Shown in pieces: positions 122 through 20,152 of a DNA stretch of 56,873 nucleotides. The first letter of the stretch is position 1; each line of letters opens with the position of its first letter. The notes under the pieces were generated by a model that searched no databases, was not told where the DNA came from, and saw nothing but the letters and a program-made list of their open reading frames with translations. Position numbers and translations under genes: made by a program. Origin of the DNA: Candidatus Nanoarchaeia archaeon (GTDB lineage: Archaea > Nanobdellota > Nanobdellia > SCGC-AAA011-G17 > GW2011-AR17); the NCBI GenBank assembly GCA_041659245.1, contig JBAZYQ010000003.1, positions 1-56,873 of the forward strand. Reading direction: 5' to 3'.

Positions 122-1303
122 ATGAAAATCCTAATAGCTGCGGACCCGCATGTAAACTTTGCGGATAATCTGGATTCATTTAAGAAATTCTATGAATTTG
201 CAAAATCCAGGAATCCCGATGCAATTGCTTTGCTTGGCGACCTATCCGGCTTCTGTTTTGACAATGAGGATATTTTCAAATTGTATGACCAGCTTTATTC
301 CCGCATTCGCCCTATTGTCGAGCAAAGCATACCATTGAAATATGGCCTGGAATTTGACAATCTTTCTCCTTATGAAATTGTCTGCCAGACGCCTGCAATT
401 GCAGAATACATACACAGCGACAGCCCTTACGGCTTTCACAGGAAATGGAAGGAGGTTTCAGAGGTTTACATGGAGCTTTTGAGCATGTTTTCAAACCAGG
501 CAAGGCTTGCATATGTGCCAATTGCTGATGTCTTAAAAAACAATCGCGAAAAAACAATGGTCATTCCGGGAAACCATGATTTTGACCTGGATTTTACAGT
601 GCTAAAAGAGCTTAGTATTCACAAGCAATCTATTGAAAAAAACAGCTTAAAACTATCCGGCTACGGCGGCGCGGCAATGCGCGACGGGACGCCTGTATTC
701 TCAGGGCTTCCTCCGGAGCTTACCACTCCGTTCAATGAATATCCAATAACAAGCATGAACGAAGACGGAACTCTGGAAACAAGGCTTGTATCAGAGCCTA
801 TGGAATTCCTTGAGCAAGAGCAGCCTGACATAGCATTGCTGCACACCCCTATTTATGGATTGCTTGACTTGCCTGCTAATTTGAGAGATAATAATGAAAT
901 GCCTGAAGCCCAAAAGCATCTCGGAAGCCCGGGCATCAGGGAATATGCAATGACAGGCAAAACAAAAATATTCTTTTCAGGACATGTGCATAGTGACCCA
1001 GGAGTAAAATCATTTGAAGCTAAGAACGGAAGCATTGTTGTTGCAATGAATCCCGGCTGCCTTGGAAACACTGAAGTCAGGGGAGGGCATTTTGCAGAGG
1101 TTTTAATTGATGATAATACAAAGGAATTCCAGTCAGCAACATTCTATGAGATACTTCCCGGAGGGCTTGTTGCGCCTTCAGCGACTTATGTAAAGAGGGG
1201 AAGGACTATAGAGCCGATAATTGTGACAGGCGCAATGCCTTCAGATGATATGGCTGATTCATGGCTCATGGAAGAGCGCGCAAAGAAGATTAGGTTTAGA
1301 TAA
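122..1303 (+). CDS. calcineurin-like metallophosphoesterase
   Basis: Ordered phosphoesterase motifs: AADPHVNF, LGDLSG, IPGNHDF, SGHVHSD. Confidence 0.75.
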   Translation: MKILIAADPHVNFADNLDSFKKFYEFAKSRNPDAIALLGDLSGFCFDNEDIFKLYDQLYSRIRPIVEQSIPLKYGLEFDNLSPYEIVCQTPAIAEYIHSDSPYGFHRKWKEVSEVYMELLSMFSNQARLAYVPIADVLKNNREKTMVIPGNHDFDLDFTVLKELSIHKQSIEKNSLKLSGYGGAAMRDGTPVFSGLPPELTTPFNEYPITSMNEDGTLETRLVSEPMEFLEQEQPDIALLHTPIYGLLDLPANLRDNNEMPEAQKHLGSPGIREYAMTGKTKIFFSGHVHSDPGVKSFEAKNGSIVVAMNPGCLGNTEVRGGHFAEVLIDDNTKEFQSATFYEILPGGLVAPSATYVKRGRTIEPIIVTGAMPSDDMADSWLMEERAKKIRFR

Positions 1304-11038: not shown

Positions 11039-13495
11039 ATGCGTAAACTCTTATTGTTAGTGGCTGCTGTATTGCTTGTCTGTGCTTTGCCTGCTTATGC
11101 AAACGTGATGGAAACAAGCCTTGCTGTCCGCGACAAGCTGCCTGCCGAAACGCTCGCAAGCCTCCCTGACTTTGTTTCACGGATGGAAGCAATGAACTCA
11201 AAAGTTTCTGTTGATGCTTCAAATGGATATTATGTTGTATATAATGAAAATGACTTAAAAGAGATATTCGGGGAAGATGCGCTCTTATTGCCTTCTCCGT
11301 CAGGGCTTTTGATGATTTCATACAAAAGAGGCGGAACTTACAGATATTGGGGCATGCTCCACGGCTTGGTTGTTGCTGATACTGCAAGAAAAGTGATTAC
11401 AATCACGAAAGGCGGGTTTATTTCAAACAGTGATTTGAATGTGAATATTGCAGGAGATGAAGTGCAGATAAATGTGAATGATCCTGCAAGAAGCTTATTT
11501 AAAATCTCAAGAGACGGCGTGTATTCGCAGAATGAGTATTTCTTGGGATGTGAATCCCTGCCATATAACAGAGATGAAGAAAGTTTTGAAAGATTCTGTC
11601 GCAGCTGGCTATCTTACAGTATAAATGAGAGAAGGGATTGCAATAGGGAAGAAAAAGAGCATTACATGGAATATTTAAAACAAACATATCCCTGTGTATT
11701 ATCTGGCATCATTATGCCTAATGGGGCATACCTTAATATTACAGGAGAGGCTGCCAGTCTGAGTAACATATTTCTTGAAAGATTTATAAAAGATGAGCAG
11801 TTTAGAATAGAAATTTTATATTCTCCTTCAGAGGAAGGGCAAACTCCCTTTAGTTTAACAAACATATCAGAATTAAGTGTTGAACCTGGCGAAGAATATG
11901 CTATTAAAGTGAAAGCGCAGGAAGGATTCTTCGGATCGGAATATAGGATTATAAGCAAAAGAATAAGATTTAAATCAAGCACAAGGCTAATAATTCATCC
12001 ACGTAATGAGGATATTATAGAAATAATTAGCCGTGAAGTAAAGTTAATTCCCGAACAGATAGATGTTTTGGTTAAAACATCTGAAACTGCAAGTGAATCC
12101 CAAGCAAGCATTCAAATCTTTGAAGGCGACTTTGAGATTAAGCTGATTGATATCCAAAATGGAGATGCTTTTGTGGCAAAAGATAGTGAATCATATTATA
12201 ACTGCCTTGGAGATTCTCTTGTGAGTACTTGCATATATAATGATTATTCACTAGATGGAAGTTTGCATATCGAACACAAATCAATAACAGAACCTGGAAT
12301 CCTGCCTTTTATCGCGGAGATTGAAACAGCACCTATTGAATATAGGGCGTCTATTAAAAAAGTAGAAATTGGAACATTTGAATCAAAAGATAGTTTAAGC
12401 AAGATAAAGCTGGTAAAGGAAGGCATAGAGACGGTAATTACATTTTCAGGGGAAAACATAACTATAGAACCCTTGGGCAGAAGTTGGACAGATTTAGGCG
12501 TAAGTTTCACAGCGAAATACTTTATTCCAAGTGAGATTGGAATAAGCGCACTTGGTGTTTATGATTTAATAGAATGCAAATTACCTGAGAGAAAATGTTA
12601 CCTTAATGGAGTTGAAGTAATGGGTCCTGCCGGGCTAATGGCTCAATTTACCCAGAGGTGCAATAGCGATTCGAATTGTAATAGCAACCAAAAATGTACC
12701 GAACATCTATGTGTGGCAAGGGCTAATTGCGAGCAGGTTTATGAAAATATAGCTTCCGGCAATATAGACGTCCTGTTGGTATCTGACAGTTATTCAAGAA
12801 AAGAAGATTTTGTAAATGATATTGAAAAAGCAATAGACCCTAATGGGTTATATGGAGGCATATTTTCTGTAGAGCCGTTTAAGGGCAATATAAACAAATT
12901 TAAATTCCATACAGTTTATGGCGGATTCGCTCCTTCAAATGTATTAGGGGGCGAACCTTGGAATACATATATTCGTTCATTTGTAAAGCAGTGCCCAACA
13001 GCAGAATATGGTATTGTTTTGTCCCAAAAAGAATTCAGAGCAACGACCTCACAAATTCGTGAGAACATAAGGTCAATTGCATGGGCAGAAATAGGACAAG
13101 TATGGATTTCTACGCAGAGCGATGATATATTCTCAGAGACATCATTACATGAATGGGGGCATGCATTTGGAGGATTATATGACGAATATTTTGAAGATAT
13201 TCAACGCACTATACCTGAAGGCTTTGAGGGAAAACCCAACTGCCTTCCGAAAGATAGAGCAATAAACGCATGGGAACAATTCCCTGATATAAAAAGAGAT
13301 GCCGAGCAGGAAAAATGGGAAGGGTGCGGTGGGTGGACATGCGGAAATAATTGTAAAAATTGGTTAAGGCCTAGTGAGAATTCCGTTATGAATCATGAAA
13401 ATGAATGGCTTGCCAAGCGCAGCGAGCCTGGCTGGAAAGCATTCAACGAGCCGAGCGAGGCGCAGCTGATTGAAAGGCTTAATGCATATTCCTAG
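11039..13495 (+). CDS. secreted multidomain protein with C-terminal M64 (IgA-peptidase-like) zinc metallopeptidase domain
   Basis: Signal peptide MRKLLLLVAAVLLVCALPAYA. HEWGHAFGGLYDEY matches the M64 HExxH...GL.DEY signature. It is preceded by a Cys-rich knot (CNSDSNCNSNQKCTEHLC). Confidence 0.6.
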   Translation: MRKLLLLVAAVLLVCALPAYANVMETSLAVRDKLPAETLASLPDFVSRMEAMNSKVSVDASNGYYVVYNENDLKEIFGEDALLLPSPSGLLMISYKRGGTYRYWGMLHGLVVADTARKVITITKGGFISNSDLNVNIAGDEVQINVNDPARSLFKISRDGVYSQNEYFLGCESLPYNRDEESFERFCRSWLSYSINERRDCNREEKEHYMEYLKQTYPCVLSGIIMPNGAYLNITGEAASLSNIFLERFIKDEQFRIEILYSPSEEGQTPFSLTNISELSVEPGEEYAIKVKAQEGFFGSEYRIISKRIRFKSSTRLIIHPRNEDIIEIISREVKLIPEQIDVLVKTSETASESQASIQIFEGDFEIKLIDIQNGDAFVAKDSESYYNCLGDSLVSTCIYNDYSLDGSLHIEHKSITEPGILPFIAEIETAPIEYRASIKKVEIGTFESKDSLSKIKLVKEGIETVITFSGENITIEPLGRSWTDLGVSFTAKYFIPSEIGISALGVYDLIECKLPERKCYLNGVEVMGPAGLMAQFTQRCNSDSNCNSNQKCTEHLCVARANCEQVYENIASGNIDVLLVSDSYSRKEDFVNDIEKAIDPNGLYGGIFSVEPFKGNINKFKFHTVYGGFAPSNVLGGEPWNTYIRSFVKQCPTAEYGIVLSQKEFRATTSQIRENIRSIAWAEIGQVWISTQSDDIFSETSLHEWGHAFGGLYDEYFEDIQRTIPEGFEGKPNCLPKDRAINAWEQFPDIKRDAEQEKWEGCGGWTCGNNCKNWLRPSENSVMNHENEWLAKRSEPGWKAFNEPSEAQLIERLNAYS

Positions 13496-13511
13496 CATTT
13501 ATTCAAATCAT

Positions 13512-13532
13512 CCCGGAGGGCGGCTTTTTTTT
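13512..13532 (+). terminator. hairpin plus T8 tract
   Basis: CCCGGAGGGCGG followed by TTTTTTTT, 17 nt after the stop. A variant of the GGCYGGCTTT motif. Confidence 0.35.
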
Positions 13533-13586
13533 CTGCAACACTGGTGTAGGTTATTTGTAGCAAAGCATTAACATTACTACAATGCA
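13528..13586 (+). repeat. direct repeat R2 (right flank of M64-like gene)
   Basis: The 25-nt core is identical to 10924-10948, followed by degenerate similarity (TGTAG..A..ATTA.C.TTAC.ACAAT.C). Confidence 0.8.
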
Positions 13587-13636
13587 TTGATAGATATAAG
13601 ACTTTGAATAAGGCTGAAAAAGAAGAGGTGATTGAA

Positions 13637-14023
13637 ATGACTCTTGCAAAAAAAATAGAAACTATTGAAGGGTTTAAAGAATTGAGCCTGACAACAAGAG
13701 ACGCGGCTTTAAAGGAGATAATAGAGCGCTATAAGTCAGAAACAATACGGGAGAAAGAGGTTATGGTAAAGATAGAGCCTTGTGTTGACGGCGCTGTTCC
13801 TGAAAGAAAATACAATCCTGCGATTAAAGACGTAATTTCCGGGAATACAACGTTCATGGCAGAATACAATAAGCTTGGCCCGCTTGAATTCATTTTACAG
13901 GGCAATGGTGGCGTAGCAGACTGCACATTTGATATGGGGCAGCAGATAGTGCTTGTTGACAGGACAATCCAACGGCTGTATGCAAAGCCGCTTCCGCCAA
14001 TATCTGCAGCAGACGATTATTAG
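13637..14023 (+). CDS. hypothetical protein, family A (copy 1 of 3)
   Basis: GAGGTG lies 7 nt before ATG 13637; the track start at 13604 is TTG. Paralogous to 15111-15527 and 17714-18043 (shared ..+DA.LKEII.SY+...., SG.TTF.E....L, .D.TI.+LY). Confidence 0.55.
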   Translation: MTLAKKIETIEGFKELSLTTRDAALKEIIERYKSETIREKEVMVKIEPCVDGAVPERKYNPAIKDVISGNTTFMAEYNKLGPLEFILQGNGGVADCTFDMGQQIVLVDRTIQRLYAKPLPPISAADDY

Positions 14024-14042
14024 GTTTCGGGGGTGAATAAAT

Positions 14043-14462
14043 ATGGTAATGCGATTGGATGAACTGAAAAAACAAGGGCAAGAGCAAAAAAAAGAAAGAA
14101 TCTCAGGGCTTGAGAAAGAGCTTGAAGATGACATTGACAGGGTGCTTGTTGAGAACCAGGACAGGCTGAAATACAATGATAATAATGGGAAAACGCATTA
14201 TGGCTGCATTCATTATTATCTCTCAAGGTTTTGCATAACAGACAGCAATTATGAACTTTACCCTGAGAAAAGAGGGGAAAAAATAATTCCGGCTGGTATT
14301 TTTCTTGCAGATAAAGAACGGGAAGGCATCATAAAAAACGTGGGCAAAAAATATGAAACTGCCGGCTGGCTGTGCTATGCTAATGTCAAGTCTCTTTCAT
14401 TTGCGCTGCCTGAATACAAAGACCATCACGACCCTTTTGATTGCTATTATAATTCGGATTGA
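14043..14462 (+). CDS. hypothetical protein, family C (single AGW unit)
   Basis: The charged N-terminus (MRLDELKKQGQEQKKERISGLEKELEDDIDRVL) and KYETAGWLCY match the 23308-23940 and 26111-26713 proteins. Confidence 0.55.
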   Translation: MVMRLDELKKQGQEQKKERISGLEKELEDDIDRVLVENQDRLKYNDNNGKTHYGCIHYYLSRFCITDSNYELYPEKRGEKIIPAGIFLADKEREGIIKNVGKKYETAGWLCYANVKSLSFALPEYKDHHDPFDCYYNSD

Positions 14463-14473
14463 GGTGAATGAAA

Positions 14474-14794
14474 ATGACAGATCTATACAAACTGCAAATA
14501 ACTGTAAGCGGAGACACGTGGGGCGTGCCTTCCAGCGGGCTGAATTTCTGGAATTACACTAAGGACGGGAAGAAAATAACCTTGCCTTACACTTTCAGCT
14601 GCATTGCAAAAGCTAATTCAAAAGAGGAGGCTGAAAAGAAGTGCATGAATGACAGGACGCTGAGAATGGTGTACAAGACGCATTATTTCCAGTATTTTGT
14701 TACAGGCATCGCAGAAGCAGAAGAAGGAAAAGACCTGCCGCTTGAAAAGCGGGTTGAAATGCTGAAAAAGAAGTTTATGGTGCTGGAGGAATAA
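14474..14794 (+). CDS. hypothetical protein, family B (copy 1)
   Basis: GAGGTG lies 8 nt upstream. The MTDLYKL N-terminus resembles MENLYRA, MTNLYEL and MTNRYNI in the other copies. The C-terminus EEGKDLPLEKRVEMLKKKFMVLEE is shared with the next gene. Confidence 0.55.
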   Translation: MTDLYKLQITVSGDTWGVPSSGLNFWNYTKDGKKITLPYTFSCIAKANSKEEAEKKCMNDRTLRMVYKTHYFQYFVTGIAEAEEGKDLPLEKRVEMLKKKFMVLEE

Positions 14795-14796
14795 AA

Positions 14797-15114
14797 ATGG
14801 AAAATCTATACCGGGCGCATATAGCTGTAAGAGGAGACGCGGATCATCGTAACTTAGAAACTTACCTGAATTATCCGGACATAAACGGAATGCACAGGAC
14901 ATTTCGCTATGACTTTTACTGCATTGTAAAGGCAGGATCTGAAAAAGAGGCTAAAAAGAAATGCAGGGATAACAGGAAATTGCAATTCTATTACAAGACT
15001 TGCTTTTATTCATATAAAGTTGCAGATGTAACAGAGCTTGAAGAAGGAAAAGACCTGCCGCTTGAACAACGGGTTGAAATGCTAAAAAAGAAGTTTATGG
15101 TGCTGGAGGAATGA
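14797..15114 (+). CDS. hypothetical protein, family B (copy 2)
   Basis: The last 75 nt are 71/75 identical to the last 75 nt of the upstream gene. The rest of the gene is divergent. Confidence 0.55.
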   Translation: MENLYRAHIAVRGDADHRNLETYLNYPDINGMHRTFRYDFYCIVKAGSEKEAKKKCRDNRKLQFYYKTCFYSYKVADVTELEEGKDLPLEQRVEMLKKKFMVLEE

Positions 15115-15527
15115 AAATGAAAAAAAAGTTAGGATATACGGACTTTAGCGAAGATCATATTAGCGAGCTTTATCAAGAATTACAGGCAGTAGCGGGTTTC
15201 AAGAAGATAGGAGATAAAACAAAAGATGCAATGCTTAAAGAAATTATTGATTCTTATAGGGAATGTGAACGAATCGGAAACAAGTGCAAAGGCATTAACC
15301 TCTGTAAGCATTATCCTTTGCTTTGCCATAAATTTCCTTTGCTTGAAGAAGTGGTAAGCGGCAGGACAACATTTAGCGAGCAGCTTAAATCTCTTCCGGG
15401 CACATTCTATATGGAAAAGGATAGAAGGCTGGAATCTGCTGTTTACAGCTATAATTATGCAATAGGGAAAATTGTGATATTTTTGGACAGCACTATTGAA
15501 AAATTGTATAGAGAGGTAACAAAATGA
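15111..15527 (+). CDS. hypothetical protein, family A (copy 2)
   Basis: ATGA overlap with the upstream gene. Contains KTKDAMLKEIIDSYRE, VSGRTTFSEQLKSL, LDSTIEKLY. Confidence 0.55.
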   Translation: MKMKKKLGYTDFSEDHISELYQELQAVAGFKKIGDKTKDAMLKEIIDSYRECERIGNKCKGINLCKHYPLLCHKFPLLEEVVSGRTTFSEQLKSLPGTFYMEKDRRLESAVYSYNYAIGKIVIFLDSTIEKLYREVTK

Positions 15528-15829
15528 CGAATCTATACGAACTATCAGCATCAAGGTGGGTTGAATACGGACCTGCTGAAGGCATGGCTGGTCCGGAATA
15601 CTCAGGCGATTATTACGTGCTTGGAGATACAAGAGAAGAAGCGCAAAAGGTTCTTGAAAGCTATCTTGGCACAGGATGGGAAGCAAAAAAAGATGCAAGG
15701 GAATTGAAAGAGCTGAATAACCTGCCTCTTGAGCAAAGACTTGTGCTGCTTGCTGAATTAAGGCGCGAAATAATCGGAAAAGACGGGAAGAAAGTCAGGT
15801 TTGAAACAAAATTAGTTCCAAAATTATGA
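15524..15829 (+). CDS. hypothetical protein, family B (copy 3, divergent)
   Basis: ATGA overlap. Contains MTNLYEL..., LNNLPLEQRLVLLAELRREI. Confidence 0.5.
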   Translation: MTNLYELSASRWVEYGPAEGMAGPEYSGDYYVLGDTREEAQKVLESYLGTGWEAKKDARELKELNNLPLEQRLVLLAELRREIIGKDGKKVRFETKLVPKL

Positions 15830-15840
15830 GGTGAAATAAA

Positions 15841-16200
15841 ATGGAAAATAATATTACGAAGGATAAACTTGAAATGAAGATTGGATTTACAGACGAGGAG
15901 CTTAATATTGCAAAAACACTAAAGGGGGCTTCGGCTGGGGCTTTAAGCAGCAACTTTCGCACCGGCTGCCCCTTTCTTTGCACTTACATCCATATTGTTA
16001 GAAGGGCAGAGAACATACTTGGGCTGTCTTATGATAAGGCGCAGGATTTTGTAATGGATATGGTGAAAAGGGGTTACGCATCTCTCCGAGATCCGGGGAA
16101 AGGTCAAGATAATTATCCTGGCTCTCTAACACTGGAGTTCACGCCGATGTCTTTTAATCTGATAGAAAGATATAATGCAAAAGAGGAGGTAACAAAATGA
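15841..16200 (+). CDS. hypothetical protein
   Basis: Same-strand ORF packed 11 nt after the upstream stop. No domain recognised. Confidence 0.5.
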   Translation: MENNITKDKLEMKIGFTDEELNIAKTLKGASAGALSSNFRTGCPFLCTYIHIVRRAENILGLSYDKAQDFVMDMVKRGYASLRDPGKGQDNYPGSLTLEFTPMSFNLIERYNAKEEVTK

Positions 16201-16502
16201 CAAACAGATACAATATCCTGATGAGAGACGACTTCCCGAATACGAAAGCCATGGTTTACAGGCTTGAGCTTGGCAAGCATAATATTTGCACTGAAGCAAC
16301 ATTCTGCTCTCCTGAGATAAAAGAGCTTTACAACTATATTGCATATGCAATGTCTGTAGATTATTTTGATGACGCAGAGATTGTCTCGGATGCTACATAC
16401 GCTCCAAGGTGCAGGGAAATGACAAAAGAGGAAAGAAAAGGGCTTGAGCATTTTTTGGCTTATGAGTCAGAATGGAATGACTGGAGATGGGGAAAGCAAT
16501 AG
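16197..16502 (+). CDS. hypothetical protein, possible family B (copy 4)
   Basis: ATGA overlap. The MTNRYNIL N-terminus is like the B copies; the rest is divergent. Confidence 0.45.
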   Translation: MTNRYNILMRDDFPNTKAMVYRLELGKHNICTEATFCSPEIKELYNYIAYAMSVDYFDDAEIVSDATYAPRCREMTKEERKGLEHFLAYESEWNDWRWGKQ

Positions 16503-16513
16503 CTGGAGGAAAA

Positions 16514-17146
16514 ATGGAATTTGACAACATAGAAAAGCTCATTGCAGAGCTGATGGCAAAGGAAGACAGGAAAGACGTGGAGTTCAGGCATATAATAGCT
16601 GTGACAGAGGTTGGGGACATAGGAAAATACATCACGCATGATCCCAAGTTGAATCCTAATGCACGCCCGCACGGAACAAAGGATGATGAAGTGCTTGCTT
16701 ATGGCCAGGCGTTTGTGCAATTGGCGGCTTTGGCTTACTTAAGGGGCATATCATTCAAGGAAGCGTTTGACAAAGGCATGCAGAACTGGATTGATGCTGA
16801 CTGGAAAAAGGCTGCCAAGCAAGCTCCGGAAAAGAAGACGTTGAATGGACTTGCAGCATCCCCTGGCTATGCATCAGGAATCGCGGAAGTTGTAACCGGC
16901 TTAAGCGATGTAAAAAAGTCAGGCTCAATACTTGTTGTCAGGTATGCAACGCCTGAGTTTGCAGCTGTTTTAAAAGATTATTCAGGCTGTGTTTCAGACC
17001 ACGGTGGGAAAACGTGCCATCTTGCGAATATTGCAAGAGAGATGAATCTGCCTTGTGTTGTGGGGACAGGAAACGCGACAGAGCTGATTAAGACAGGGCA
17101 GGTAATCTCTTTGGATGGAGACAAGGGCGAAGTGTATTTGGAGTGA
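16514..17146 (+). CDS. MazG-like all-alpha NTP pyrophosphohydrolase domain fused to PEP-utilising-enzyme mobile (phosphohistidine swivel) domain
   Basis: GGAGG lies 5 nt before ATG 16514. The N-terminal half (AVTEVGDIGKYI ... DEVLAYGQAFVQLAALAYLRGISFKEAF) is MazG-like. The C-terminal half (GLAASPGYASGIAEVV ... DHGGKTCHLANIAREMNLPCVVG) matches the swivel-domain consensus GG.tSHaAIvARE.giP.VvG, including the His. Confidence 0.6.
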   Translation: MEFDNIEKLIAELMAKEDRKDVEFRHIIAVTEVGDIGKYITHDPKLNPNARPHGTKDDEVLAYGQAFVQLAALAYLRGISFKEAFDKGMQNWIDADWKKAAKQAPEKKTLNGLAASPGYASGIAEVVTGLSDVKKSGSILVVRYATPEFAAVLKDYSGCVSDHGGKTCHLANIAREMNLPCVVGTGNATELIKTGQVISLDGDKGEVYLE

Positions 17147-17151
17147 TAAAA

Positions 17152-17370
17152 ATGGAAAAAGAAAAAAACAAGAAAGATTTGGAAAAAAGAATAGCATACA
17201 GGGAGCATATTGTCACGGATATGGGAAATGGGGGCGCTTTTTGCAGCCACTGCCAGTATGATTTGGGCTCAGACCCTTTTGAGATAATCAAGATTAAGAA
17301 ATGCCCTGGCTGCGGCTATACCCTTTATGAAGGAGGCATGTACATAAACGGAGGTGGTTCTGATTTCTGA
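17152..17370 (+). CDS. zinc-ribbon protein
   Basis: CSHCQY ... CPGCGY form a four-Cys ribbon. ATG 17152 lies just after the upstream TGA. Confidence 0.5.
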   Translation: MEKEKNKKDLEKRIAYREHIVTDMGNGGAFCSHCQYDLGSDPFEIIKIKKCPGCGYTLYEGGMYINGGGSDF

Positions 17371-17680
17371 AATAAAAAAAGAATGGGAAAAAGAAGACGG
17401 GAGCATTGACTTGGGCAATCCAATGGTTATTGCTTTTAGAAAGGCCAATCTTGAAACTTTGGCAAAAGAGCAGAAATCAAATCTTCACTGCCCTTTCTGC
17501 GAAATTCACCTGCCATATACTATGGGAACTCTTGGAGGGCAGGCGCCCACTGGAAAGAAGGATGCATATGGGCAGCAGATATTCAGGAACGCATTGTATT
17601 GCCCATTGTGCGAGAGGTATTTTGACAAGGAGCCGGAGCAGCTAAGCCTTTTCACGGAGAAAAACTTATATACACAATAG
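17354..17680 (+). CDS. zinc-finger protein
   Basis: CPFCEIH ... CPLCERY. GTG start preceded by GGAGG, overlapping the upstream gene by 17 nt. Confidence 0.45.
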   Translation: MVLISEIKKEWEKEDGSIDLGNPMVIAFRKANLETLAKEQKSNLHCPFCEIHLPYTMGTLGGQAPTGKKDAYGQQIFRNALYCPLCERYFDKEPEQLSLFTEKNLYTQ

Positions 17681-17713
17681 CTTTTATTCAAAGAAAGCAC
17701 TTGGAGGTGCAAA

Positions 17714-18043
17714 ATGACATTAGCATCTATAATAGAAGACATAAACAAACTATCTAACACAGGAAGAATAAGTCTTGAAACAAGGCAAAACGCGTTAAGA
17801 GAGGTAATAAACTCTTATAGGGTTTGCAATCAACCAAAAGGATATGAAACTTTGGGTTGTGCACTTCTTGAAAAAGTCATAAATGGGCAAACAACTTTTG
17901 CTGATGAGCTTAACAACGCAAGAATGCAGAGGCAGGATGCGAAGTTTATAATAGATAACATAAGCATTTTAAGCGGCAATTATGATGTTTCCGGACAGGT
18001 TCAGACAATAGATGCGGCTGTAAAATACGCTTATACGATATAA
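17714..18043 (+). CDS. hypothetical protein, family A (copy 3, short)
   Basis: Contains ETRQNALREVINSYR, INGQTTFADELNNA, IDAAVKYAY. GGAGGTG lies upstream. Confidence 0.55.
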   Translation: MTLASIIEDINKLSNTGRISLETRQNALREVINSYRVCNQPKGYETLGCALLEKVINGQTTFADELNNARMQRQDAKFIIDNISILSGNYDVSGQVQTIDAAVKYAYTI

Positions 18044-18496: not shown

Positions 18497-19690
18497 CTAA
18501 GCCGCCTTTGCAATTATCTTAAGCTTTCCCTTAAACAAGCCTGCTTTTTTCTTTGGAGCAAAAGCCCTTACTTTAATCTCTTGCCTTTCTCCTGCATTTA
18601 CCAGGATATTTGCATCCTTCAATGCAACCCATTCGCCGTTAAAAGCTTCAATAATAATGCCTGTGTTTGCGGAAAAGCTTACCTTTACTTTGTCAATGCC
18701 TGTGTTTCTTACTGCGATAGTTGTCTCTTTGGTTTCTCCTGGCTTTAATTTTCCAAAATTAACGCTTTTTGTCTCAAGCACAGTCGCAATCCTGCTCACA
18801 TATTCTATTTTTCTTGATTCTGTTATGTTTGTTATTGAATCAAACGCAGTTATTGCCAGGTTGTATGCTTTTTTATCGTCAGACGGCTGGAAATTAAAGC
18901 TTGCTTCAAATAATGCTGTTTCATTGGTTCCATTTACTTTGCTCATTTTTATTTCACGCCCGTCAAGAAAAGCGGTGATGTTAGCAATATCTTCAATGCC
19001 ATTATCATCAGCAACACTTACTTCAATCTTAACTGTCTTGTTGCCTGCAATTATCTGTATTCCCTCTGCATCCATCTCATCAGGAGTTATGTTTATTGAA
19101 ATAATCCTTGGTGTGATATTTTCCAGTTCAAGCTCATATTCCAATTCATCTTTTTCCAGCGCTGTTTGAAAAGCCCCTTGTCCCGGACTAGCTTCTCCTT
19201 CTTCCCAGCCAAGCTCCAATGTTCTCTGCAGCGAATAGCTGTTTCCGTTTGCGCCCATTGAAGATGCGTATGAGAAGATGTCGCTTTCATTGCCATTGGT
19301 AAGATTTACAACGCCTGCGCTGTTTGCCAAGGAGATAGACAATTGCATTGCATTGAATCCGTCTGTTTCGTCCCAAACACCATCATTGTTTCCCCAGAAT
19401 TTCTCAAAGCTGTCAGTGTCTGCGTCTGTTCCGTCAACAAGCTCTTTTGCAATTACCAAATATTGCATTGAGCCAAGAGTTCCTTCCAATGGTTTGTTGT
19501 TCAAAAGCCACCGGCTTAAGTCAACTGCTTCTTCTGCATTGTTGTATATCTCAATCCATTCGCCGTCAGTGTCATCGCACTGGCTTGGATTGTACATCAC
19601 TTCTGTAACCAGAAGCCCTGCAGCAGCCATTCTGCAAGATGCCAATAATAAAGATGCCAATAGGATTAGCATCCACGTCTTTTTTTCCAT
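18497..19690 (-). CDS. secreted lamin-tail-domain (LTD) protein with Ig-like C-terminal region
   Basis: Signal peptide, then LLVTEVMYNPSQCDDTDGEWIEIYNNAEEAVDLSRWLL (LTD consensus). AAGGAGGT SD. Confidence 0.6.
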   Translation of the reverse strand: MEKKTWMLILLASLLLASCRMAAAGLLVTEVMYNPSQCDDTDGEWIEIYNNAEEAVDLSRWLLNNKPLEGTLGSMQYLVIAKELVDGTDADTDSFEKFWGNNDGVWDETDGFNAMQLSISLANSAGVVNLTNGNESDIFSYASSMGANGNSYSLQRTLELGWEEGEASPGQGAFQTALEKDELEYELELENITPRIISINITPDEMDAEGIQIIAGNKTVKIEVSVADDNGIEDIANITAFLDGREIKMSKVNGTNETALFEASFNFQPSDDKKAYNLAITAFDSITNITESRKIEYVSRIATVLETKSVNFGKLKPGETKETTIAVRNTGIDKVKVSFSANTGIIIEAFNGEWVALKDANILVNAGERQEIKVRAFAPKKKAGLFKGKLKIIAKAA

Positions 19691-19728
19691 TTTAATTACC
19701 TCCTTTCATACTATATTTCGGTTCTAGG

Positions 19729-19838
19729 CGCCGGGAGCGGGACTTCCACCGCATAGAACGGATTTGAACCCGCATAGCGGGTGGTTACCGCTTATCTGGT
19801 CATCAGCCAGACGCAATGCCTGGTTATGCCATCCCGGC
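19729..19838 (-). tRNA. type-II (Ser-like, long variable arm, G73) tRNA with anticodon loop CUGAUGA (GAU) and putative 20-nt intron in the T-arm
   Basis: Hand fold on the minus strand. Acceptor stem GCCGGGA/TCCCGGC is 7/7 paired. D arm is GCA/TGC. Anticodon stem is TCTGG/CCAGA. Variable arm is AGCGG-TAACCAC-CCGCT. The T arm GCGGG-TTCAAAT-CC[20 nt]CGC becomes perfect (GCGGG/CCCGC) only after removing about 20 nt. TATA-like TTTATAAAAA begins 24 nt upstream. Confidence 0.55.
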
Positions 19839-19884
19839 TTTGCCCACCGATATTTTTATAAACCTGTTAAGCATTTTTAATTAC

Positions 19885-19918
19885 GGGTGGTTACCGTTTG
19901 TCTGGCTATCAACCAGAC
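19885..19918 (-). repeat. partial duplicate of the tRNA anticodon arm plus variable arm
   Basis: 29/34 identical to 19779-19812. Both hairpins and the central GAT are retained. Confidence 0.7.
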
Positions 19919-20152
19919 TTTTTCTTTTATCTTTTATTGCGACTTCAGACTTTCACTTCCCCTTCATAAAGCTTTCTGACAAAAAACACGTGAATTTTCA
20001 CAGAAATTGAAAATTCAATTGATTTGATTGAAAGCTTTCCGGATTTTAATAGAAGTTTTAGTCCTTTTTCCAACATTGCCGAAAGCCATTTTTAACAACC
20101 GTCGTCAAAGCTGTGCAGAGGTTTTTTAAATCCTAATGCCTTTGATTTAAGC

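Follow-up and report, generated by a model that had tools for sequence, protein, structure and literature searches.

A class II tRNA gene with an isoleucine anticodon in a nanoarchaeal genome: a possible serine-accepting decoder neighboured by a putative antisense RNA

tRNAs whose body and anticodon belong to different amino acids are rare in nature, and each known case, namely the tRNA-Ser(CAG) of the CTG-clade yeasts, the nev-tRNAs of nematodes and the allo-tRNAs of bacteria, has been instructive. Here, we describe a tRNA gene of this kind on the reverse strand (positions 19729–19838) of a 56,873 nt stretch of DNA (positions 1 to 56,873 of contig JBAZYQ010000003.1 in assembly GCA_041659245.1; the window in what follows) from a Candidatus Nanoarchaeia archaeon. 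The host is a small groundwater archaeon, the 1.26 Mb assembly of which (118 contigs) is 89.6% complete with 3.8% contamination. Judged from its sequence and those of its relatives, the gene is a conserved archaeal class II tRNA gene with a GAU anticodon, and belongs to a family found in Woesearchaeota and Nanoarchaeota. Since this family is conserved, widespread and redundant with the normal decoders, deliberate or tolerated mistranslation becomes directly testable in a major uncultured lineage; a wrong amino acid may be misincorporated on purpose by means of a regulated-looking cassette. The locus also suggests two possibly new uses of known machinery: a whole tRNA that is cut out of an mRNA leader in the manner of an intron, and an antisense RNA directed against a tRNA.

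In the tRNA-Ser(CAG) of the CTG-clade yeasts, an anticodon of the leucine family is joined to a serine-type body, with G73, A35 and G37 present, and the codon is ambiguous between serine and leucine. The archaeal family shares the serine-type body, G73, A35 and G37 with it, but the yeast case concerns one anticodon in one eukaryotic clade in which the codon has been captured, whereas the archaeal family has many anticodons, keeps the canonical decoders and gives no sign of reassignment. Bacterial allo-tRNAs are charged with serine and have non-serine anticodons. They have a long variable arm and derive from metagenomes, two features that the archaeal family has in common with them (PMC5389517). 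Their acceptor and T stems are described as 8/4 or 9/3 bp (PMC5389517), whereas those of the archaeal family are 7/5, which sets it apart from the allo-tRNAs. The nev-tRNAs, as portrayed in PMC3333845, are class II tRNAs with glycine or isoleucine anticodons (including UAU), have A73 and are charged with leucine. The archaeal family resembles them as they are described there (PMC3333845) in the mismatch between class II body and anticodon, in its varying anticodons and in its coexistence with normal class I tRNAs; in the window gene, indeed, the body is of class II and the anticodon belongs to neither leucine nor serine. Unlike the nev-tRNAs, with their A73 and leucine charging, the archaeal family has G73 (also found in the window gene), introns within bulge–helix–bulge (BHB) motifs, a further BHB that brackets the tRNA and an upstream unit in antisense orientation.

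BHB motifs are known from archaeal tRNA introns and also from the processing stems of rRNA. The canonical form (hBHBh′) is described as a 4 bp central helix with two 3 nt bulges on opposite strands and helices on both outer sides, and a BHB formed between the leader and the trailer of a tRNA as being cut and joined so that a circular intermediate of the tRNA results and the flanks are linked to each other (PMC4090602). The archaeal family resembles the non-canonical introns and the split and permuted tRNAs of this source in its 4 bp helix with two 3 nt bulges and in its leader–trailer BHB (PMC4090602). It is unlike the permuted and split tRNAs in that the BHB encloses a complete, unpermuted tRNA, which apparently forms part of a protein-coding mRNA's leader. 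In the full-text literature we found no description of a complete tRNA inside a BHB within an mRNA leader, and in the full-text literature outside subscription journals and supplements no report of such a body/anticodon-mismatched family in archaea. Finally, type I toxin–antitoxin loci (for example tisB/istR-1 and zorO/orzO) use an antisense RNA with a short duplicated complementary stretch, which is transcribed towards or away from its target. The archaeal cassette recalls them in having a neighbouring duplicated stretch which, read on the other strand, could act as a seed, as well as in its patchy and often multi-copy occurrence, but the 'toxin' would be a tRNA and not the mRNA of a peptide, and both RNAs are predicted here from DNA.

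The tRNA gene and its family

The gene is 110 nt long with its intron and gives a mature tRNA of 90 nt without CCA. In its acceptor stem the 5′ strand GCCGGGA pairs with the 3′ strand TCCCGGC (19736–19730), which is followed by the discriminator G73 at 19729. The D arm has a 3 bp stem and GG in its loop, and the anticodon arm is TCTGG-CTGATGA-CCAGA, with the anticodon GAU at 19802–19804 flanked by U33, G37 and A38. The variable region of 21 nt contains the 5 bp stem AGCGG/CCGCT and, together with the seven acceptor pairs and the five T-stem pairs, assigns the tRNA to class II. The initial annotation had proposed just such a Ser-like class II body with a long variable arm, G73 and a GAU anticodon; its fold is upheld by covariation in the 46 relatives described below, and ARAGORN likewise reads the anticodon as gat, reporting a tRNA-Ile(gat) at 19750–19838 on the reverse strand. 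The Rfam model RF00005 scores the gene at 32.0 bits (gathering score 29) with two acceptor mismatches tolerated. In both the ARAGORN and the Rfam fold a pseudo T arm ends the gene early. The longer fold, with the far acceptor strand and about 20 nt taken out of the T arm, is on the evidence of covariation the correct one. A second copy of the module (about 215 nt, 78% identical) lies on contig C60 of the same genome, with its acceptor stem, T stem and variable stem all changed in a compensatory way; for this copy Rfam picks the far acceptor strand, at 49.9 bits.

An intron of about 20 nt had also been proposed for the T arm, and a canonical hBHBh′ motif is found at its junctions. The intron (20 nt, 19743–19762, reverse strand) is placed at position 59/60 because the insert occupies the T-arm equivalent of the canonical site. 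The motif comprises the T stem GCGGG/CCCGC, the central helix TTCA/TGGA, the bulges AAT and AGT and the inner helix CCGT/GCGG, which makes the insert a regular BHB intron, and its removal gives the mature T loop TTCAAAT. Among the 46 sequences the central helix is paired in 97.6% and the inner helix in 92.4% of cases, with double changes in both. Some relatives are interrupted further. An orthologue from the same genus (locus L035, 5506–5660 on contig C6 of genome G090, reverse strand) carries, besides the 59/60 intron, an extra insert of about 48 nt in the 5′ strand of the T stem. A member with the anticodon UAA (L093, around 320–450 of a record titled 'uncultured Methanosarcinales') has introns at both 37/38 and 59/60, and directly downstream of it is an open reading frame (ORF) that we take to encode ribosomal protein uS2. 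At L147 (record title again 'uncultured Methanosarcinales', around 401–437, reverse strand) a T arm with the 59/60 intron and the 3′ end of the acceptor stem lie 8 nt before the ATG of an ORF, presumably for peptidyl-tRNA hydrolase; the 5′ part of this tRNA was looked for and not found.

The extent of the family was followed with a covariance model (R1) trained on six copies, among them the window gene, which as a training sequence scores 123.6 bits. Among 37 genomes of the taxonomic family to which the host belongs (f1), R1 found 13 loci in nine, each of 107–155 nt and with at least 64 bits, compared with 40–57 bits for ordinary 84 nt tRNA-Ser genes. At a cut-off of E ≤ 1e-9, nine of the 151 genomes of an order sample matched; in one of these, G018, the match is a true tRNA-Ser(GCU) gene that has an intron of this type. 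In a phylum sample 21 of 151 genomes matched, 17 of them from other orders of the class. A scan for the pattern of T arm, intron and acceptor, with one genome per species, gave at least 80 loci and extended the family with members from records titled Woesearchaeota or Nanoarchaeota; the homologues of isoleucyl-tRNA synthetase (IleRS) used below bear the same organism names. Loci with serine anticodons were removed from the scan before anticodons were counted. These look like ordinary tRNA-Ser(GCU) genes; they come from records of Asgard-type archaea (Hodarchaeota, Promethearchaeota), of Micrarchaeota, of Bathyarchaeota and of Nanoarchaeota, and from three with no title other than 'archaeon'. 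The resulting set comprises 46 distinct relatives, 19 located by the model or by BLAST and 27 by the pattern scan.

In this set standard pairs fill 97.8% of the pair cells, and both sides have changed at 20 of the 27 pairs. The covariation score is 0.495 compared with 0.204 for shuffles (0 of 500 as high), and is at most 0.10 when the partners are slid. The variable region ranges from 15 to 24 nt, with 4–9 bp. It is highly probable that the locus yields a real, processed, tRNA-like RNA. A virus origin was discarded, as none of the 18 matches to the T-arm/intron pattern in viral contigs fits R1. Seven genomes have two members, with different anticodons in six of them (for example GAU and UAA in both G044 and G209) and GAU twice in the host. 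In genome G094 two members stand in tandem about 320 nt apart (L066, 1179–1284 and 1501–1602), with the anticodons GAA and CAA.

The variation of the anticodon within the family had not been noticed in the initial annotation, and neither had the second BHB nor the promoter that points away from the tRNA behind the upstream fragment, to which we return below. After the removal of the serine-anticodon loci from the pattern scan, the 46 relatives have UAA (14), GAU (9), GAA (7), UAU (4), CAA (4), UAG (2), GAG (2) and, once each, CAG, AAG, CAU and CUC. These anticodons serve leucine, phenylalanine, isoleucine and methionine codons and are not those of serine isoacceptors (NGA or GCU). U33 is present in 46, A35 in 45 and G37 in 37 of the 46 sequences. 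At the locus that precedes a gene for a lamin-tail protein (described below), the anticodon is GAU in the host, G137 and G202 and UAA in G158. Full-length homology links the downstream proteins (84%, 33% and 31% identity), and the anticodon has therefore switched at a syntenic locus.

The comparison with the tRNA complement of the genome, which the initial annotation had suggested, reveals a separate, canonical class I tRNA-Ile(GAU) on contig C31 of the host genome (G000; 367–463, reverse strand), with A73 and the anticodon loop CTGATA–intron–A. The window gene, with its class II body, G73 and G37, lacks the class I body, A73 and A37 of such a tRNA-Ile(GAU). In other genomes, too, the family member has a canonical A73 partner with its own anticodon: for G090, G137 and G003 this is Ile(GAU), for G179, G158 and G210 it is Leu(UAA). 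From the gene complement, the window tRNA is an additional decoder beside the normal tRNA-Ile(GAU) and not the sole one. When the codons of the IleRS gene were compared with the conserved columns of 102 homologues, ATT coincided with isoleucine at 15 of 16 positions and ATC at four of five, TTA/TTG with leucine at 18 of 18 and TTT/TTC with phenylalanine at 24 of 26. The genetic code is therefore standard, because isoleucine, leucine and phenylalanine codons align with their own residues, and a reassignment of AUY to serine is ruled out by the 19 of 21 conserved columns at which these codons stand for isoleucine. Hence, of the recoding or mistranslating tRNA that had been envisaged for this locus, the code change falls away, whereas mistranslation remains the leading, if unproven, reading.

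G73 is found in 45 of the 46 relatives and in 18 of the 19 that were located without forcing it; at 19729 in the window it agrees with tRNA-Ser identity, and the discriminators of the host are G in all three tRNA-Ser genes and A in all four tRNA-Leu genes. The pair G30–C40 is present in the window gene and in 39 of the 46 relatives. According to PMC9976931, G73 and G30–C40 are strong elements for both the bacterial-type and the archaeal seryl-tRNA synthetase (SerRS), a change of A73 to G73 turns leucine into serine identity, and G73 is an antideterminant for the leucyl-tRNA synthetase (LeuRS) of Haloferax volcanii. Serine is thus the most likely charge, since the class II body, G73 and G30–C40 fit SerRS and G73 repels the archaeal LeuRS; that the tRNA is in fact charged with serine and used in decoding would, by this analogy, have a chance at or a little short of even. 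The first 27 nt of the window tRNA match each host tRNA-Ser at 21 positions, the tRNA-Leu genes at 15–18 and tRNA-Ile at 14. The host genome encodes one SerRS, with its N-terminal arm present (one Seryl_tRNA_N match), and four class Ia synthetase genes (five PF00133 match segments); no second, dedicated SerRS or LeuRS was seen in this 89.6% complete genome.

Bracketing motif, upstream copy and promoters

The second BHB encloses the whole tRNA gene. Its 5′ half (19839–19850, reverse strand) consists of the outer strand TCGGT (19850–19846), the central strand GGGC (19845–19842) and the bulge AAA (19841–19839). In its 3′ half (19718–19729, reverse strand) G73-CCU (19729–19726) pairs with GGGC, and is followed by the bulge AGA (19725–19723) and the outer strand ACCGA (19722–19718). 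The motif is canonical in the window, where RNAfold returns it together with the cloverleaf at −75.9 kcal/mol (z = −3.6). Among the 46 members, leader positions −7 to −4 are paired with positions 73–76 in 43, 39, 42 and 41 cases, respectively, and the pair types vary (at −6:75, AT 23, GC 14, TA 4 and CG 1). Slid registers of leader and trailer give far less pairing, and leader positions −3 to −1 form a conserved AAA bulge. The central helix is complete, with all four pairs, in 37 of the 46 members compared with three of 38 canonical tRNAs of the host genome, and with a relaxed outer helix 28 of the 46 have the motif (null mean 11.1, maximum 20). Cleavage by the endonuclease would, from the geometry of the BHB, fall after −2 and after 78, and would free the tRNA with short tails. 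The host genome encodes processing machinery, namely the splicing endonuclease EndA, the ligase RtcB and the RNA of RNase P.

Downstream of the tRNA lies the gene of a secreted protein with a lamin-tail domain (18497–19690, reverse strand). Its Shine–Dalgarno (SD) sequence AAGGAGG and its ATG lie 24–39 nt past G73, too close for the gene to have its own promoter. A strong SD sequence and an ATG are likewise found 21–68 nt downstream in nine of the 13 members of f1. The lamin-tail gene is syntenic behind the cassette in three genera, and in other genomes the cassette precedes different genes; an ORF was looked for near the C60 copy and none was found.

Upstream, the window contains a sense copy of tRNA positions 27–61 (19884–19918, reverse strand; 30 of 35 positions match). 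This duplicated piece of the anticodon and variable arms had been pointed out in the initial annotation and turns out to recur: most relatives carry an upstream sense copy of about positions 27–60, which sometimes starts at position 5. The copy scores higher against its own tRNA (median 39) than against the best of 45 foreign tRNAs (median 25) in 35 of 45 cases. The part that tracks the tRNA most closely consists of the 3′ strand of the anticodon stem and, in the variable arm, of the 5′ strand with the loop. Among the 18 intact copy hairpins, 16 differ from the tRNA arm in stem or loop, and stem changes that preserve pairing occur in the copies of G209a, G210b, L082 and L099 (listed stems read by eye). 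The L093 copy is without the 37/38 intron of its tRNA. Read on the plus strand, the copy begins with 15 unpaired nt complementary to the variable arm of the tRNA and continues into a hairpin, and 32 of 45 members have a run of at least five A on the left side of the copy. In the window this corresponds to a candidate antisense small RNA of about 40 nt (19885–19928, plus strand), with a 5′ single-stranded seed, the hairpin GTCTGG-CTATCAA-CCAGAC (19900–19918) and then TTTTTCTTTT, a terminator-like site with a U-run that extends to 19928. From these features, we would give a putative antisense RNA an even chance of being made from the fragment.

At L146 (401–447, 'uncultured Methanosarcinales') and L148 (401–437, 'archaeon') a run of A stands in place of the 5′ acceptor strand, and the D-like hairpin, anticodon arm, variable arm, intron-bearing T arm and 3′ acceptor strand are retained; by their sequences, these genes look as though a deletion had joined the upstream copy to the gene. 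We also considered whether all of the roughly 107 nt upstream might be a degenerate copy of the gene in which the T loop has become a TATA box, but an alignment test rules this out: positions −46 to −1 compared with the 3′ part of the tRNA give a median z of 0.03, with z > 2 in only three of 46. Joints or deletions between the repeats were sought in four DNA runs, all of them contigs, and none was seen, although contigs cannot show their absence.

Promoters were scored with a matrix for the transcription factor B recognition element (BRE) and the TATA box derived from 31 canonical tRNA promoters of the host genome. A BRE/TATA-like element, TTTATAAAAAT (19851–19868), lies between the fragment and the tRNA, and scores 13.8 bits forward and 10.8 bits in reverse. 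In the family, 20–26 nt separate the copy from the TATA box in 32 of 36 members (median 24), with a spacer that is not conserved in sequence, and the distance from the TATA box to the tRNA ranges from 8 to 37 nt. The element scores a median of 10.8 bits away from the tRNA versus 4.7 towards it, and the reverse orientation is the higher in 41 of 46 members. The forward site starts at −30, compared with a median of −42 for canonical tRNA genes, so that a transcript from it would start within the tRNA itself. Upstream of the fragment, there is a sense BRE+TATA match, GAAAGCTTTATGAA (19963–19976, reverse strand; 12.9 bits, start −138), which by its position is likely to be the promoter of a precursor of leader, tRNA and downstream gene. 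Within the scanned range of −150 to −51, 14 of 45 members have a sense site that scores 8 bits or more, and 13 of these sites lie at −122 to −145. The conserved sequence TTTCG beside the TATA box reads as a reverse BRE, and in f1 it doubles as the 5′ side of the outer helix of the BHB; it may serve as both.

Proposed explanation and alternatives

The overall best explanation, which we hold with slightly less than even confidence, is a spliced tRNA of serine identity that decodes isoleucine codons and is paired with an antisense RNA. The upstream sense promoter would produce a long precursor of leader, tRNA and downstream gene, both BHBs of which would be cleaved by the splicing endonuclease of the host and the ends ligated by RtcB. 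The tRNA would thereby be freed, and the leader would probably be joined to the mRNA of the lamin-tail protein. The mature tRNA, most likely charged with serine, would place it at some AUU/AUC codons in competition with the normal tRNA-Ile. The fragment would form the body of a short antisense RNA from the promoter that faces away from the tRNA, so that two facing promoters would give, respectively, the precursor and an RNA of about 40 nt complementary to both the leader copy and tRNA positions from about 27 to 60. With its free 5′ end complementary to the variable arm, the handle of SerRS, this RNA could hold the tRNA in check in the manner of an antitoxin. An extension of this scheme, to which we give little weight, is a two-RNA cassette resembling a toxin–antitoxin system in Woesearchaeota and related Nanoarchaeota, with the serine-accepting tRNA as 'toxin' and the antisense RNA, acting on the variable arm, as 'antitoxin'. 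If this were true, expression of the tRNA would lead to proteome-wide misincorporation of serine as a regulated response to stress, dormancy or viruses.

Several points weigh against this explanation. The likeness of the body to tRNA-Ser is modest (21/27), the C60 copy is equally close to tRNA-Leu(GAG) (22/27) and has A73, and the serine charge would follow from identity rules measured in other organisms. Steady insertion of serine at abundant isoleucine, leucine and phenylalanine codons should be harmful, and its benefit is not evident. As for the sample, the 46 sequences were aligned by fitting them to the structure of R1, which bears on the covariation, and the pattern scan demanded a 3′ end in …CG, so that G73 in those 27 members is partly a matter of construction. 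The strict bracketing hBHBh′ is found in only nine of the 46 members (null mean 3.4, maximum 8), and only 18 of 41 copies tested form a perfect hairpin. In the window (contig C3) and in G137 the promoter element is stronger towards the tRNA (13.8 versus 10.8 bits). The double role of TTTCG makes the promoter argument somewhat weaker for f1, and the constant spacing between copy and TATA box could reflect the inheritance of one block.

The upstream fragment may alternatively be a partial tandem duplication of DNA maintained by gene conversion, with no RNA product and with the TATA box as the promoter of the tRNA, and this, the main rival, appears to us rather unlikely. It would account for a direct repeat, about 107 nt away from the part of the tRNA gene that it copies, with a sequence that follows that of the tRNA, for the deletion-like genes in two species (L146 and L148) and for the better score of the element towards the tRNA in the window and in G137. 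On the other hand, a forward start would fall inside the tRNA, yet the leader is paired and covaries from −12 to −4; the promoter is oriented in reverse in 41 of 46 members; the spacer varies in sequence and keeps its length; and the antisense strand of the copy reads as a hairpin with a U-run, the stem of which has changed and still pairs in the copies of G209a, G210b, L082 and L099. The tRNA itself could be a mere processing module in a 5′ leader, bounded by the BHB, which gives the endonuclease, RNase P and RNase Z a means of shaping the downstream mRNA and from which the excised RNA is neither charged nor admitted to the ribosome. In favour of such a module are the bracketing BHB, the strong SD sequence and ATG within 21–68 nt in most f1 members, the synteny with the lamin-tail gene in three genera and the different genes behind the cassette elsewhere. 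But a processing module has no need for a 7 nt anticodon loop with U33 and A35 almost without exception, for G37, G73 and the D-loop GG or for a T loop TTCRAAT that is exactly restored by splicing. A harmless serine anticodon would suffice, yet there is none among the 19 and the further eight unfiltered members, and the C60 copy has no nearby ORF; we regard this possibility as improbable.

Charging with leucine or isoleucine, which would make the tRNA a conservative or harmless extra decoder similar to the nev-tRNAs, seems to us more doubtful still. The leucine anticodons of 23 of the 46 members speak for it, as do the A73 of the C60 copy and the retention of A35 and G37, both of which are determinants for LeuRS in yeast. 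For isoleucine, a modified A37 (t6A) is a further identity element for IleRS, whereas position 37 is a G here, and canonical tRNAs for leucine and isoleucine are already on hand. A precedent is the nev-tRNA(Ile,UAU), a class II tRNA described as charged with leucine, but A73 is reported for all 115 nev-tRNAs (PMC3333845), whereas G73 is present in 18 of the 19 unforced members here. This G73 repels the LeuRS of H. volcanii, and the identity set listed for the bacterial IleRS includes A73 (PMC9976931, Table 1). Finally, the initial annotation had also considered a decayed gene or the scar of an integration (att) site. The weak score with the standard model (32 bits) and the partial repeat close by could be read in this way, but decay and scar are both contradicted by the constraint on stems and arrangement across species: the gene is conserved with covariation across orders, its base pairs are almost all kept among the 46 relatives and the whole cassette persists, with compensatory changes, in many species of several orders. 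Moreover, no integrase-like family was found among the 27 neighbouring ORFs scanned, and the viral contigs held no match that fits R1. We therefore reject a scar or pseudogene with near certainty and retain the spliced tRNA of serine identity, paired with an antisense RNA, as the explanation of choice.

Annotation and neighbouring features

Standard annotation misfolds or misses genes of this family, the members in G158 and G003 being absent from the Rfam match lists. With the Rfam tRNA model, only 24 (G158) and 31 (G003) tRNAs are found at E ≤ 0.01 in these genomes, both of which are rated 100% complete; heavily interrupted tRNA genes are common in their lineage. ARAGORN names the gene at 367–463 of contig C31 (reverse strand; L032) a tRNA-Ser(gga) with an intron, although its sequence is that of the canonical tRNA-Ile(GAU), and similarly names a tRNA-Leu(UAA) on contig C82 Ser(tga). 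Weak Rfam matches near the locus (PK1-TEV, STnc300, GlsR9 and U4) lie far below their thresholds and were ignored.

The C60 copy is flanked by three families of short intergenic repeats (1242–1279, 1507–1565 and 1561–1709 on C60), each of which is found on three to seven other contigs: a GGGG-TTTT-CCCC hairpin, a palindromic TTCGAAAAC...GTTTTCGGATATCC unit and an element of about 150 nt with GAAGAGTTTAT at its end. In the window itself, about a dozen ORFs, mostly overlapping and of 100–140 amino acids, follow an ORF of 818 amino acids at 11039–18043 on the plus strand. Their sole Pfam match is one PEP-utilizers domain, and they are possibly the island in the centre of which the initial annotation had placed the tRNA.

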